From a virus (taxonomy: Duplodnaviria > Heunggongvirae > Uroviricota > Caudoviricetes), in the IMG/VR virus record IMGVR_UViG_2609460344_000017: DNA of 7,501 nt; one strand, given 5' to 3'. The position numbers and the translations under genes are program-made. Below the pieces are notes generated by a model, which made no database searches, had not been told where the DNA came from, and saw only the letters and a program-made list of their open reading frames with translations. Below are positions 1,303 through 7,205 of this stretch, in pieces (position 1 is the first letter of the stretch; every line of letters starts with the position of its first letter).

Positions 1303-2400
1303 ATGACAATTTCATATATTCCTATTCTGAAAGCGAAACGTTCTGAGTTATCAGCTTTATCGCAGCTATCCATTGAAAAGAAATCAAAAATTTTGCCATT
1401 ACTCGAAATTGAACCAGTGCCAATTGACCCTGATTCAGGTATTGCCTTAAAGAGTTATAACGAGACTCTTATAGAGTTCGGAAAGAAAGTCTCAAAATCT
1501 TGCTCAGATATGCAAGGTGTTTATATTGATGGATTATTAATTGAAGAGCATTTTATTTCTCCTGAAGATCATTACCCTATAATAAATGCGGTTAATCAAG
1601 TTAGAGATATGGGGATAAGAGTTATTCCTGTCAGTTCACCAACTCGCCCATCTAACTATAAAAGAGCGATTGATGAATTAATGCAGAATGAAATATGCTT
1701 GAGATTAACCACGTTAGATCTGGTTAACCCACAATTAATAACGCATTACATTAATCATCTGGGAATTCCTTTATCAAATATTGATATAATTATTGACTTA
1801 AGAGATGAGTTAACCGAGGATAAAATTAATTCCGGCGAACTATATACTTTGGCAATGGGATTGATAAACAATCTGGCGCACCTCAATGAATACAGAAAAG
1901 TGATTCTTTCTGGGGGTTCATTTCCTACAGATCTCAGTGATATTTCTGTTGGTCTATATTCTCAACCTCGAATCGAGTGGATTTTATGGCAGAGTTTAAT
2001 GAATAGAAAAGAACTTGCCAGAAATGTGATTTATAGTGATTATGGAGTACAGCACCCCGACTTTAATAGGCTTTCGACGCGATTCCCTAGCGTATCTGCC
2101 AGCGTCAGATACTCTGGAGATAATGACTTTTGGGTATTTCGAGGAAGAGTAGCTAATCGCTTTGGTTATGAACAATATGGTAAACATAGTGAGGATATTC
2201 TTGCTCATCGAGAATATTCAGGGCCTACATTCTGTGCGGGAGATAGAGACATAGAATATTATGCAAACGAGTATCAAGCCTACAAAGCCAATCCCTCTGG
2301 TAACTATAAATTTGGTAGCCCAGAGGTATGGCGTAGGATTGGGCAAAACCATCACATAACTAAGGTTGTTGAGCAACTCGCCACTCTTTACGGGCTTTAA
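1303..2400 (+). CDS. Hypothetical 365-aa protein in an AT-rich island; possibly Beta-protein (PF14350) / sce7725-like, unverified
   Basis: ATG at 1303 with AAGG ribosome-binding site 7 nt upstream; uninterrupted 1098-nt ORF. AT-rich codon usage distinct from the flanks. No Walker, HxH, HEPN or other catalytic motif recognised. The N-terminus MTISYIPILKAKRSELSAL reminds me of Beta-family proteins (recollection only). Confidence 0.8.
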   Translation: MTISYIPILKAKRSELSALSQLSIEKKSKILPLLEIEPVPIDPDSGIALKSYNETLIEFGKKVSKSCSDMQGVYIDGLLIEEHFISPEDHYPIINAVNQVRDMGIRVIPVSSPTRPSNYKRAIDELMQNEICLRLTTLDLVNPQLITHYINHLGIPLSNIDIIIDLRDELTEDKINSGELYTLAMGLINNLAHLNEYRKVILSGGSFPTDLSDISVGLYSQPRIEWILWQSLMNRKELARNVIYSDYGVQHPDFNRLSTRFPSVSASVRYSGDNDFWVFRGRVANRFGYEQYGKHSEDILAHREYSGPTFCAGDRDIEYYANEYQAYKANPSGNYKFGSPEVWRRIGQNHHITKVVEQLATLYGL

Positions 2401-2938
2401 GTTTAACTCGAACAGCTTCACGAAGCTCGCCAACATCCATACTATTGGCGAGTTTTGACCATAAGACGCGTTTAGGTTTATTTTTCAAATTCTGTAGCTC
2501 CCCTACATCACTTAATAGGGAAAGCAATTCATCTTTCCAAAGAAGCATTGTTAAGGAAAGTTTGTCCACTTGTGGATTCAACTTGCTAGTTCGAATTGTT
2601 TTTAAATGGATACCTTGCCGTGCACCTTGCGTAACTTGCTTTATCCCCCACCATGATGGAACTATGCTTAAAGCATCATAAAGATGGCAATCAGAGACAA
2701 CCAAAGTTACTTTATCCATCACTGATGAGTAATGTTGCACCTGCGCTGGTAATCTGAGCAAGTTATCACTCTTGCTCTTCAACTCATAACCATGTATAAG
2801 CCCATTGATCACTGCTATATCAGCTCTGCTAGCCCCTAGATTCATCGTAAACTCATCAATGATTAGGGTGTCAGGATCTTTATGATGATCTCTCAGAATC
2901 TTGGCATGCACAGCCTTTCTTACATCAATGTCTCTCAT
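2360..2938 (-). CDS. 192-aa PD-(D/E)xK-type (RecB/restriction-like) nuclease-fold protein; possibly sce7726-like, unverified
   Basis: ATG at 2938-2936, stop at 2362-2360. Translation contains IIDEF ... SRADIAVINGLIHGYELKS, i.e. acidic residue, then hydrophobic-strand Asp, then E-x-K about 12 residues later, the classic PD-(D/E)xK arrangement. The ribosome-binding site is weak. Its 3' end overlaps the 3' end of the 365-aa gene by 41 bp. Confidence 0.75.
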   Translation of the reverse strand: MRDIDVRKAVHAKILRDHHKDPDTLIIDEFTMNLGASRADIAVINGLIHGYELKSKSDNLLRLPAQVQHYSSVMDKVTLVVSDCHLYDALSIVPSWWGIKQVTQGARQGIHLKTIRTSKLNPQVDKLSLTMLLWKDELLSLLSDVGELQNLKNKPKRVLWSKLANSMDVGELREAVRVKLKARKEWRVAQQP

Positions 2939-2970
2939 ACCATAGTTGCGCTTTCATCGACTCTCTCAAG

Positions 2971-2989
2971 CCATGATTCTATATCATGG
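2971..2989. promoter_or_regulatory. Perfect 7-bp inverted repeat CCATGAT-N5-ATCATGG upstream of the 192-aa gene (candidate operator)
   Basis: Exact palindromic arms at 2971-2977 and 2983-2989, 33-51 bp upstream of the start codon at 2938. Confidence 0.3.
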
Positions 2990-3243
2990 TTCGCATGAAT
3001 GCCATTTGATATGACCAGTGGTTAAACATTGCACAGAAAAGTGGATGTGTATTTTAACAAAAGCAATGACGGCTAACCATGTTGGTATGTCGATAAAATG
3101 TTTCAACGTAAGCATTATCTGTTCCGCCCTTTCAGACGGCCTCCTGATGTTCTGAGGGTGCAGAATCCCTCCGGTTAAGGATTTAATAAAAATCGTTTCT
3201 GATTTAAATCTTCAGTATTTAGTTGTTAGTCGGTTTATAGCCT

Positions 3244-3555
3244 TTATGCTTCGGCCTTATTTCTCAGCCATACACAAACCGGGCCATCTTCGGTGTCATG
3301 TATTGAACCAATAAACCATCCATTGCCCTCTGGTCGTTCCGGTTCCCATGCAGAAATATCAGCATCACACGCATCAAGGTCAGCACATCCTTCATCTCTG
3401 AAGCAGAGGACGTATTGAAGATTATTTTCCTCCATCCAGGCGTTAAACTCTTCCGTTGAAATATATTCCCGACCGTCACAGAATTTTTCATATTCAGGAT
3501 GCGTCCAGCAGCCATATTCATCACGTACTACTGGTATTTCTTTAATTTCATTCAT
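3244..3555 (-). CDS. Hypothetical prophage protein (103 aa, acidic, Trp/Cys-containing)
   Basis: ATG at 3555-3553 with GGGAGA ribosome-binding site 7 nt upstream. Overlaps the stop of the upstream gene by 8 bp, suggesting translational coupling. Last gene of the minus-strand early operon. Confidence 0.7.
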   Translation of the reverse strand: MNEIKEIPVVRDEYGCWTHPEYEKFCDGREYISTEEFNAWMEENNLQYVLCFRDEGCADLDACDADISAWEPERPEGNGWFIGSIHDTEDGPVCVWLRNKAEA

Positions 3556-5400: not shown

Positions 5401-5826
5401 TCAATGCACAGCCACAATATTTCCTGCAGGGCCACCACGATTCATCTGGTTGAAACCAGCGATCGCCACTGCGACAAAATCATCAGCGTCTCTCACCAGT
5501 CGTTCCCGCGTCTCCACCAGCTCCCGAAAATAAGCTGAACTGTGGCTGCGCATTCTGGCCACCAGCAAAGGTGGCATTGCCTTTTCGATCGCTGGTAACA
5601 ACGCCTGAATTTTTTCAACTGCATCAGGGGTGTCTTTCTCTACCCAGCGGAAAATTTTCTGGGTATTGCGAGCCAGGGCTTCCGGATGGCTGTCGTCATA
5701 CAGTTCTGGGAACGTCATACCCAACTCAAAATAAGCCTGGGTTATTCCAGCTGCTGGAACTTTCTCACCATCAGGATATGCCCAGGCATTCATCGCCATG
5801 CGGATGTGCTCATGTTTGATTTTCAT
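5401..5826 (-). CDS. ydaT: YdaT-like protein (Rac prophage ydaT homolog), 141 aa
   Basis: ATG at 5826-5824 with AAGAGG ribosome-binding site. Size, sequence (MKIKHEHIRMAMNAWAYPDGEK...) and position immediately downstream of a ydaS-like gene match Rac prophage YdaT as I recall it. Confidence 0.8.
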   Translation of the reverse strand: MKIKHEHIRMAMNAWAYPDGEKVPAAGITQAYFELGMTFPELYDDSHPEALARNTQKIFRWVEKDTPDAVEKIQALLPAIEKAMPPLLVARMRSHSSAYFRELVETRERLVRDADDFVAVAIAGFNQMNRGGPAGNIVAVH

Positions 5827-6133
5827 GAATCATTTGCCTCTTGATGCTTCGGGTATGATCGTTTTCGTCATTTGGTTGCTTCATCGACATATTCTGCGAA
5901 TAACATGACGAGCGTCGTAAGTATGTCCAATCAACATCAGGACGAAGTTCTTCACACAGGACACCACCTTTTGTTGCTCGTTCAATCGCAGGACATCTCT
6001 CAGCAGGCAACTGACGTACACCTTTGATCCATTGATTTACGCTTGGAGGAGATACACCTAAAAGCCTAGCCATTGCTGATTGCCCACCGACAACAGCACA
6101 AGCTCGTTTGAATGAATAGTTATCTTTTTTCAT
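5810..6133 (-). CDS. ydaS: YdaS-like Cro-type helix-turn-helix protein, 107 aa
   Basis: Preferred start is ATG at 6133-6131 with GGAG about 10 nt upstream; the ORF track's upstream start at 6154 lacks a ribosome-binding site. Helix-turn-helix region AMARLLGVSPPSVNQWIKG. Divergent from the repressor gene. Overlaps the ydaT-like start by 17 bp. Confidence 0.8.
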   Translation of the reverse strand: MKKDNYSFKRACAVVGGQSAMARLLGVSPPSVNQWIKGVRQLPAERCPAIERATKGGVLCEELRPDVDWTYLRRSSCYSQNMSMKQPNDENDHTRSIKRQMIHENQT

Positions 6134-6160
6134 CGAATGAACTCCAAAAAACACACAATA

Positions 6161-6228
6161 ATATTAGGCTTAGCCTAATGCGATTGTCAATAGGCTATGC
6201 CTAACGCTTCGAGAGTAGGGATTGCCTA
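6161..6228. promoter_or_regulatory. OR-like tripartite operator with a PR-like promoter for ydaS-ydaT, between the divergent racR-like and ydaS-like genes
   Basis: Three inverted repeats of the form TAGGC-N3-GCCTA: 6164-6178 (TTAGGC-TTA-GCCTAA, perfect), 6191-6203 (perfect 5-bp arms) and 6216-6228 (4 of 5). Centres are 25-26 bp apart. A minus-strand promoter, -35 TTGACA (reverse complement of 6185-6190) and -10 TAATAT (reverse complement of 6161-6166), overlaps site 1. Confidence 0.55.
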
Positions 6229-6257
6229 ACGCGATGCGCATAGGAGACTATTAAGCA

Positions 6258-6734
6258 ATGCTTAGTGGTAAAGACTTAGGCCGAGCGATAGAGCAGGCCA
6301 TCAACAAAAAAATTGCATCAGGAGCCGTCAAATCAAAGGCGGAAATCGCACGTCATTTCAAAGTCCAACCACCATCAATCCATGACTGGATTAAGAAAGG
6401 TTCGATAAGTAAAGACAAACTTCCAGAACTATGGCGTTTCTTTTCTGATGTGGTTGGTCCAGAGCATTGGGGGCTTAACGAATACCCCATACCAACCCCA
6501 TCCACTTCAGATACAAAAAGTGAACTTTTAGACATAAACAGCCTTTATCAAGCCGCCTCTGATGAAAAAAGAGCAATTGTGGCTTTCCTCTTATCTGGAA
6601 ATGCTACGGAGCCTAGTTGGGTTGATCATGACGTTCGCGCCTACATTGCCGCAATGGAAATGAAGGTAGCTAACTATCTGAAAAATCAAGAATCAAAACG
6701 GAAAAGCCAGAACATCACCAAGACAGGAACTTAA
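6258..6734 (+). CDS. racR: RacR-like prophage repressor (XRE-type helix-turn-helix), 158 aa
   Basis: ATG at 6258 with TAGGAGA ribosome-binding site 10 nt upstream. Helix-turn-helix region SKAEIARHFKVQPPSIHDWIKKG. Divergent from ydaS-ydaT, as in the Rac immunity region. Confidence 0.8.
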   Translation: MLSGKDLGRAIEQAINKKIASGAVKSKAEIARHFKVQPPSIHDWIKKGSISKDKLPELWRFFSDVVGPEHWGLNEYPIPTPSTSDTKSELLDINSLYQAASDEKRAIVAFLLSGNATEPSWVDHDVRAYIAAMEMKVANYLKNQESKRKSQNITKTGT

Positions 6735-6748
6735 ACTTATATGGTCCG

Positions 6749-6778
6749 ACGGGAAATTCCTAGTTCCCGTTAGTTAAC
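6749..6778 (+). terminator. Candidate intrinsic terminator after the racR-like gene
   Basis: Perfect 7-bp stem ACGGGAA / TTCCCGT (6749-6755 and 6764-6770) with an 8-nt loop, followed by TAGTTAACTC. The tail is only moderately U-rich. Confidence 0.35.
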
Positions 6779-6830
6779 TCCTACTACCTCTCCCACAAAC
6801 CATCACCTATTAGGTCGCACCCAAATCATT

Positions 6831-6871
6831 AGGCATAGCCTATTGACAAGCAATTAGGCATTTCCTATAGT
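6831..6871 (+). promoter_or_regulatory. OL/PL-like element: consensus sigma70 promoter overlapped by two operator repeats
   Basis: -35 TTGACA (6843-6848), 17-bp spacer, -10 TATAGT (6866-6871). Operator-type repeats TAGGC-ATA-GCCTA (6831-6843) and TAGGC-ATT-TCCTA (6855-6867) overlap the -35 and spacer/-10. Confidence 0.5.
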
Positions 6872-7052
6872 TTTCCCATACCAACCCATCCCGTCCCACA
6901 CAATACAGGGCAATACCTAGAGTTACCCGGCAGTGGTCAGGGATTAAGTAGCCAGCCCGAGGCGTATGAACATGACGGCGGGAACACTTTGTATAACAGC
7001 GCAGCAGGTTTTTAGTTCCGCTACCCCAGCGTTAAGGGGAAATGAGGTCAGC

Positions 7053-7205
7053 ATGGATACTATCGAGCTTGGCAACAACGAATCTCTGGTATGTGGCGTG
7101 TTTCCCAATCAGGACGGCACGTTTACCGCGATGACGTATACCAAAAGTAAAACGTTTAAAACCGAAGCTGCCGCGCATCGCTGGTTAGCCAGAAACGCTA
7201 ACTGA
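7053..7205 (+). CDS. Small prophage protein (50 aa), YdaF-like by position
   Basis: ATG at 7053 with GAGG ribosome-binding site 5 nt upstream; stop at 7203-7205. Lies downstream of the PL-like promoter on the same strand as racR. An in-frame ATG at 6966 would give 79 aa but has a poorly spaced ribosome-binding site. Confidence 0.5.
   Translation: MDTIELGNNESLVCGVFPNQDGTFTAMTYTKSKTFKTEAAAHRWLARNAN

Follow-up and report, generated by a model that had tools for sequence, protein, structure and literature searches.

A predicted four-dyad RacR operator in the racR-ydaS gap of a Rac-like prophage, and a putative second operator downstream of racR

Introduction

The repressor-binding sites of phage lambda are 17 bp long and lie about 23-24 bp apart, and the left and right operators, OL and OR, are separated by about 2.3 kb. 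[quoted passage not shown] (2017) reported three variants of a GCCTAA/TTAGGC repeat within the 123-bp racR-ydaS intergenic region, likened them to lambda OR, and found that RacR forms three complexes with this DNA in electrophoretic mobility shift assays (EMSA) and is enriched there in ChIP-qPCR (PMC5700373). A subsequent study (NAR 2022, PMC9638921) describes a RacR DNase I footprint in which the ydaST promoter is protected first, together with in vitro transcription; it also gives the consensus (T/A)TAGGC-n3-GCCTA(T/A), names operators O1-O3, of which O3 lies across the racR ATG, and maps three racR promoters, one of them leaderless. Four inverted repeats, or operators, are given in later work (PMC11014345, PMC11879457), and RacR has been reported to be an octamer with a CI-like N-terminal fold (NAR 2023, PMC11014345). 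Depletion of RacR derepresses ydaS-ydaT (PMC5700377, PMC6765115) and also raises the expression of ydaG, ydaF, kilR, racC, xisR and intR 40- to 100-fold or more (PMC6765115, PMC11014345, bioRxiv 2026). YdaS is reported not to repress racR in K-12 (PMC9638921). The RacR regulon, including ydaFG, is stated not to be characterised in detail (PMC11014345), and the silencing of kil has been attributed in the Rho literature to a terminator inside racR (PMC4150792).

A second described system is the PaaR2/YdaS/YdaT switch of prophage CP-933P in E. coli O157:H7 (PMC8630535). It resembles the locus examined here in its YdaS and YdaT partners, its four equally spaced inverted repeats between the divergent genes, an octameric repressor and an identified PL/OL analogue. 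It differs in that the repressor is PaaR2, the palindromes are 18 bp long with the half-site consensus GTTTAGTAA, and the repressor gene is followed by a toxin-antitoxin pair.

Here, we describe a computational analysis of a 7,501-nucleotide stretch of the IMG/VR virus record IMGVR_UViG_2609460344_000017 (Caudoviricetes), referred to below as the window. The window is the immunity region of a Rac-like lambdoid prophage, with replication genes on one side. Its operator arrangement is already known from the K-12 orthologue, at 87% DNA identity, and what is new in this respect is only that another allele is described. We present evidence that the racR-ydaS gap of this allele holds four dyads of the RacR type, and that a similar pair of dyads lies with a promoter downstream of racR.

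Results

The repressor and its divergent neighbours

The features of the immunity region are collected in Table 1. Gene identity, the anatomy of the sequence and its recurrence in related loci were computed directly in this work. The 158-aa repressor belongs to the RacR equivalog NF049929 of NCBIfam (246.8 bits against a cutoff of 200) and is 92% identical to K-12 RacR. Its first 73 N-terminal residues are strongly conserved in all relatives. Residues 38-47, PPSIHDWIKK, make up the predicted recognition helix, which takes the form PPSI(H/Y)DWIKK among relatives and differs from that of K-12 at one residue, H42 here as against Y42 in K-12. At the usual thresholds no RacR family was found in Pfam or PHROGs, the helix-turn-helix region giving only sub-threshold Pfam matches (YdaS_toxin, E = 0.012; HTH_17, E = 0.068), and a PDB sequence search with RacR returned no meaningful relative. 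An AlphaFold2 single-sequence model (pLDDT 49.9, pTM 0.32) was too poor to show anything but an all-helical secondary structure. Peptidase_S24 gave no match to RacR even at E values up to 10. Judged by its domains, RacR would be lambda-CI-like at its DNA end yet outside the self-cleaving CI/LexA (S24) family, and because it has no S24 domain the analogy with lambda is functional only.

Proteins with a RacR-like N-terminal domain also occur in Pseudomonas phages. The repressor of vB_PaeS-D14H (2501-3349 of its locus) is about 53% identical to RacR in this domain and, unlike RacR, carries Peptidase_S24 (E = 2e-13). This combination of a RacR-like N-terminal domain with an S24 C-terminal domain suggests that the C-terminal domain was swapped during the history of the RacR family. 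Related half-sites are found in the vB_PaeS-D14H intergenic region, and the repressor at a second locus (L019) likewise combines a RacR-like N-terminal domain (about 53% identity) with related half-sites in its intergenic region.

The helix-turn-helix of the YdaS-like protein is 41% identical to that of RacR over 29 aa (E = 2e-6), including the shared PPS(I/V)xxWIK, a likeness that fits a repressor/Cro pair with common operators. The ydaS and ydaT genes overlap by 17 nt, the start of ydaT lying within the 3' end of ydaS. An earlier reading of this DNA, the original prediction, had a RacR-type repressor silencing ydaS and ydaT, and this is supported by the NF049929 match, by the operator consensus and, by analogy, by the K-12 data. 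It had further noted that ydaS-ydaT have been reported as toxic when derepressed; derepression does follow RacR depletion in K-12, but the toxin label is disputed, and YdaS and YdaT, which have been argued to be analogues of Cro and CII rather than toxins (Jobling, PMC5917428), are more likely to be such analogues.

Table 1. Genes, dyads and promoters of the immunity region, in coordinates of the window
Feature	Position	Strand	Sequence or elements	Remarks
ydaT, CII-like regulator	5401-5826	-		141 aa; Pfam YdaT_toxin; PHROG 163 (CII-like activator)
ydaS-like gene, Cro analogue	5810-6133	-		107 aa; Pfam YdaS_toxin (E = 4e-30), P22_Cro; PHROG 35
Putative YdaT-box	5816-5833	-	ATGATT-CATGAA-AATCAA	Exact match to ATGATT-n6-AATCAA; across ydaT ATG
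Predicted ydaS-ydaT promoter (PR-like)	6161-6190	-	-35 TTGACA 6190-6185; 18-nt spacer; -10 TAATAT 6166-6161	From consensus promoter scan
Dyad 1	6165-6177		TAGGCTTAGCCTA	Exact, 0 mismatches to TAGGC-N3-GCCTA; centre 6171, -87 from racR ATG
Dyad 2	6191-6203		TAGGCTATGCCTA	Exact, 0 mismatches; centre 6197, -61 from racR ATG
Dyad 3	6216-6228		TAGGGATTGCCTA	1 mismatch (TAGGG for TAGGC); centre 6222, -36 from racR ATG
Dyad 4	6252-6264		TAAGCAATGCTTA	2 mismatches, weaker; across racR ATG
racR	6258-6734	+		158 aa; predicted N-terminal helix-turn-helix; C-terminal part without S24
Single half-site	6276-6281	+	TTAGGC	Within racR
OL-like dyad A	6830-6842		TAGGCATAGCCTA	Exact; adjoins -35 of plus-strand promoter
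OL-like dyad B	6855-6867		TAGGCATTTCCTA	1 mismatch; in promoter spacer, 2 bp shared with -10
Predicted PL-like promoter	6843-6871	+	-35 TTGACA 6843-6848; 17-nt spacer; -10 TATAGT 6866-6871	11/12 consensus positions

Four dyads occupy the racR-ydaS gap

The gap between the start codons of the ydaS-like gene (6133, minus strand) and racR (6258, plus strand) measures 124 bp (6134-6257), as had been predicted. The three TAGGC-N3-GCCTA inverted repeats placed there by the original prediction are real, those beginning at 6165 and 6191 being exact and the one at 6216 having one mismatch, and their centres are 26 bp (dyads 1 and 2) and 25 bp (dyads 2 and 3) apart, in agreement with the predicted spacing of 25-26 bp. 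A fourth and weaker dyad at 6252-6264 had been missed; its 3-bp spacer holds bases 1 and 2 of the racR ATG. The description of the locus as a lambda OR-like tripartite operator therefore stands as to an operator between divergent repressor and Cro-like genes but not as to the number of sites, the E. coli-type operator reading as four dyads (-87, -61, -36 and 0) and not three.

Matches to TAGGC-N3-GCCTA with at most one mismatch number five in the window where 0.10 would be expected, and none of 200 shuffles reached five. All seven TTAGGC hexamers of the 7.5-kb window fall within 6164-6281 or 6829-6859, while matches with two mismatches at 2215 and 3841 are at chance level (about two expected). 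Dyads that are so far above chance and confined to both flanks of racR count in favour of their being RacR operators. Set against the published consensus (T/A)TAGGC-n3-GCCTA(T/A), the dyads at 6165 and 6191 match exactly, that at 6216 is one off and that at 6252 two off. Dyads 2, 3 and 4 most likely correspond to the published O1, O2 and O3, with dyad 1 as an additional site, because these positions are kept across genera and because of the descriptions in the text of PMC9638921. The same text notes for K-12 a half-site inside racR equivalent to that at 6276-6281.

A consensus promoter scan of 6050-7000 returned two promoter-like sites. One is the ydaS-ydaT promoter, whose hexamers, TTGACA and TAATAT, are identical to those mapped for K-12 PydaS by primer extension and -10 mutagenesis (PMC9638921; PMC11879457). 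Its -35 falls between the first two dyads and adjoins dyad 2, which is upstream; dyad 1 occupies the promoter spacer and shares 2 bp with the -10. The TTGACA predicted as the ydaS-ydaT -35 is thus present at 6190-6185, but it abuts a repeat where overlap had been claimed; the overlapping element is the -10. On the other strand, a predicted leaderless racR promoter comprises a -35, TTGCCT (6222-6227), overlapped by dyad 3, and a -10, GAGACT (6244-6249). By analogy with K-12 PracR3, it is plausible that this promoter would start transcription at the racR ATG. The corresponding -10 mapped in K-12 is GAGAAT, and the -10 of K-12 PracR2 (AGTAAG) is not conserved in this allele. Given these differences, autoregulation may differ in detail, and a comparison of these hexamers indicates that the strength of the racR promoter may vary among alleles. 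No regulatory features are annotated across the corresponding region in the MG1655 RefSeq record.

These observations make it very probable that the three repeats are RacR operator sites and belong to a four-dyad operator filling the racR-ydaS gap of a Rac-like lambdoid prophage. Studies by others in K-12 supplied the evidence for RacR binding, for the footprints, for the promoter positions and for derepression on loss of RacR; these results would carry over to this allele by analogy. We consider it unlikely that the dyads serve mainly as sites for the Cro-like YdaS or for YdaT, with RacR acting elsewhere. The helix-turn-helix of YdaS does resemble that of RacR, YdaS is reported to compete with RacR for operators in K-12 (PMC11014345), and protection of about 100 bp over PydaST by YdaT in K-12 (PMC11879457) argues against RacR acting alone at this promoter. 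However, the RacR footprint and EMSA of K-12 map to the dyads themselves, and YdaT has a different motif, ATGATT-n6-AATCAA, which in the window is found at 5816-5833 instead. The box there is identical to the K-12 box consensus (PMC11879457), and a YdaT-box over the ydaT start has been described for both K-12 and CP-933P. Because a lambda-type switch predicts that repressor and Cro share sites, binding of YdaS to the dyads would not conflict with their identity as RacR operators.

Half-sites are kept while spacers and linkers vary

Loci of RacR relatives were found by protein similarity and taken from species-representative genomes, phage records and E. coli genomes. The 1.1 kb between 5800 and 6900 is 99-99.9% identical to racR/YdaT-annotated regions of O103 and O157:H7 genomes, is 87% identical at the DNA level to K-12 Rac, and is present in 1093 of 5426 complete E. 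coli genomes. K-12 Rac shares with the window its gene order, the half-site (T/A)TAGGC, the 3-bp spacer length, the dyad offsets (-87/-61/-36/0) and the PydaS hexamers. It differs in the N3 spacers and linkers and in the length of YdaS, 98 aa in K-12 and 107 aa here. The genes downstream are of the O157/O103 type (DUF1391, ydfB, ydfC and dicB in a near-identical O103 locus), where K-12 has ydaG, ydaF, sieB and kilR.

Dyads at -87, -61 and -36, with a weak dyad over the racR ATG, are found in K-12, strain 317, E. ruysiae and phage vB_EcoS-683R6. Among E. coli-type alleles the half-sites are kept and the N3 spacers and linkers differ from those of the window; dyad 1 was found in every such allele fetched. 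More distant loci, from Mixta, Proteus, Klebsiella, two Achromobacter, Nitrosomonas, a metagenome-assembled genome (MAG) and Klebsiella phage KpF5, show three dyads (about -60, -35 and 0), and the promoter module of the ydaS-like gene is made up of those at -60 and -35. The dyad over the ATG (dyad 4) has just one mismatch in the non-E. coli relatives. The three dyads of distant loci, as against four in E. coli, indicate that E. coli has one extra operator unit, at -87, and that its ATG dyad has decayed. In all loci fetched, the -36 dyad departs from the consensus in its left half-site, with G, T or A in place of C, a pattern that suggests that a weaker site is maintained at this position.

Information content was compared per position over 12 distinct promoter modules with 25-bp spacing. 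It reached 1.87 bits in the half-sites and 1.83 bits in the -35, and was 0.79 bits in the N3 spacers, 0.65 in the linker and 0.38 in the downstream sequence; since the 12 modules were chosen by motif match, the conservation of the half-sites is partly circular, although the loci themselves came from protein similarity and the modules occupy fixed positions.

This pattern bears on the proposal that the inverted repeats act as RNA hairpins, that is, as a terminator, an attenuator or a leader structure, which we regard as less likely still than their being primarily sites for YdaS or YdaT. The minus-strand segment 6179-6163, flagged in a terminator scan, is simply dyad 1 beside a T-rich run, and the fold z-score of the 124-nt intergenic region is -2.4, a value accounted for by the repeated palindromes. 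The dyads, however, lie upstream of both the predicted ydaS start (the -10 ends at 6161) and the leaderless racR start, and would be mostly untranscribed. The hairpin stems are only 5-7 bp long, and Rfam returned nothing in the intergenic region. Across alleles the arms are constant and the loops change, with no compensatory changes, which argues for dyads that are bound by protein and not for an RNA helix. That the dyads are chance occurrences or leftovers of mobile elements with no regulatory role is effectively refuted, for although two-mismatch matches occur elsewhere (2215, 3841) at chance level, the five closer matches exceed the 0.10 expected, the dyads hold fixed positions relative to the promoter hexamers, and they recur upstream of racR-type genes from E. 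coli to Achromobacter and Nitrosomonas hosts.

A probable OL/PL counterpart lies downstream of racR

The other site returned by the promoter scan, the PL-like promoter of Table 1, points away from racR and toward a DUF1391 gene at 6966-7205. The geometry of the dyads around it is exactly that of the ydaS promoter module, of which it is a mirror copy: 6184-6209 and 6824-6849 are 92% complementary over 26 nt. Downstream of racR, 10 of the 13 distinct loci fetched besides the window likewise have a dyad pair with centres 25 bp apart, TTGACA adjoining the first dyad and a -10 overlapping the second. The carriers are E. coli alleles, Mixta, Proteus, a MAG, two Achromobacter and the free-living Klebsiella phage KpF5, and in some of these loci inserted genes part the module from racR. 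No such module was seen in the flanks fetched for the Klebsiella sp., Nitrosomonas and Aeromonas loci, nor in two scanned Pseudomonas phage loci. In K-12, the copy lies between racR and ydaG, about 100 bp after the stop codon of the former and about 170 bp ahead of the latter. We found no description of a RacR site downstream of racR in the literature on RacR, our coverage of which was incomplete.

Its recurrence and geometry indicate that the module at 6830-6871 is probably the counterpart of OL/PL. A module of this kind, combined with an octameric RacR, makes lambda-like looping between OL and OR over about 640 bp plausible. Our fuller proposal is a tentative one, to which we give somewhat less than even confidence: that RacR-type immunity regions have a second, two-dyad operator and promoter beyond racR, about 640 bp from the intergenic operator, that the RacR octamer would bridge both operators by looping out racR, as opposed to binding as four adjacent dimers, and that the downstream module would keep the leftward genes silent. 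The leftward genes meant are kil, the recombination genes, xis and int in K-12, and the dicB-type genes here.

Near this module, CACCTATTAGGT (6804-6815) is an everted arrangement of two adjoining RacR-like half-sites, with its centre about 25 bp upstream of dyad A. The everted half-sites are kept in E. coli alleles and, judged by this placement, may be a decayed third OL site.

Other features of the window

Two convergent genes lie away from the immunity genes. A 'Beta protein' gene (PF14350; 1303-2400, plus strand) matches PADLOC PD-Lambda-2_C with E = 2e-41, and its partner, encoding a sce7726-family protein (2360-2938, minus strand), matches PADLOC 'cll' with E = 2e-28. On these matches the pair at 1303-2938 is a candidate anti-phage defence cargo of the prophage. 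The region 590-915 holds a hokD-type toxin open reading frame within 590-802 on the minus strand and a sok antisense RNA (Rfam RF01794, 740-915, 119.8 bits). Bases 1 to about 566 are not collinear with the rest of the window among the best-matching complete E. coli genomes listed, in which matches start at 567. None of the 5426 genomes has one place covering 80% of the window, and most have several matching places. This lack of collinearity, taken with the several matching places per genome, suggests that 1-566 is the terminal part of an insertion sequence lying at the edge of the prophage.

Discussion

The arrangement described here can be set out as a working model in which each (T/A)TAGGC-N3-GCCTA(T/A) dyad would be read by one RacR dimer through its N-terminal helix-turn-helix. 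Dyads 1 and 2 flank the -35 of the near-consensus sigma-70 promoter PydaS and cover its spacer and the edge of its -10, and RacR bound to both would shut RNA polymerase out. RacR would in this way silence the genes for the Cro-like and CII-like proteins as well as the replication genes that follow. Dyads 3 and 4, which lie over the racR promoter region and its leaderless start, would provide autoregulation. The module at 6830-6871 would most likely be repressed by RacR in the same way, like OL/PL of lambda. In this model the occupancy of one dimer per dyad, the cooperativity between dimers and the OL/PL function are what we infer from the layout of the sites.

The likeness to lambda OR extends to several features. 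In both, repressor and Cro-like genes are divergent, with a CII-like gene next, and several imperfect dyads of one family, regularly spaced at about 2.4 helical turns, lie over the lytic and repressor promoters. A leaderless repressor transcript and a repressor octamer are also shared, both on the basis of K-12 RacR data. At the sequence level, a second operator and promoter across the repressor gene would match lambda OL/PL. The differences are as clear. The gap here has four dyads with 13-bp cores and centres 25-26 bp apart, RacR is without S24, YdaS is reported not to repress racR, and about 640 bp separates the OR-like operator from the OL-like site, in which two dyads are clear.

By its sequence the RacR-YdaS-YdaT switch of this prophage is intact, and the allele is common in O157 and O103 strains. 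Because the operators keep the half-sites studied in K-12, the biochemistry of that strain can probably be carried over to the prophages of pathogenic strains. The OL/PL-like module is the only part of this analysis able to add knowledge, and it is a modest lead. If it is a true counterpart of OL/PL, it would directly account for the 40- to 100-fold increase in expression of the leftward Rac genes on RacR depletion, and it would give a lambda-like looping explanation for the RacR octamer.
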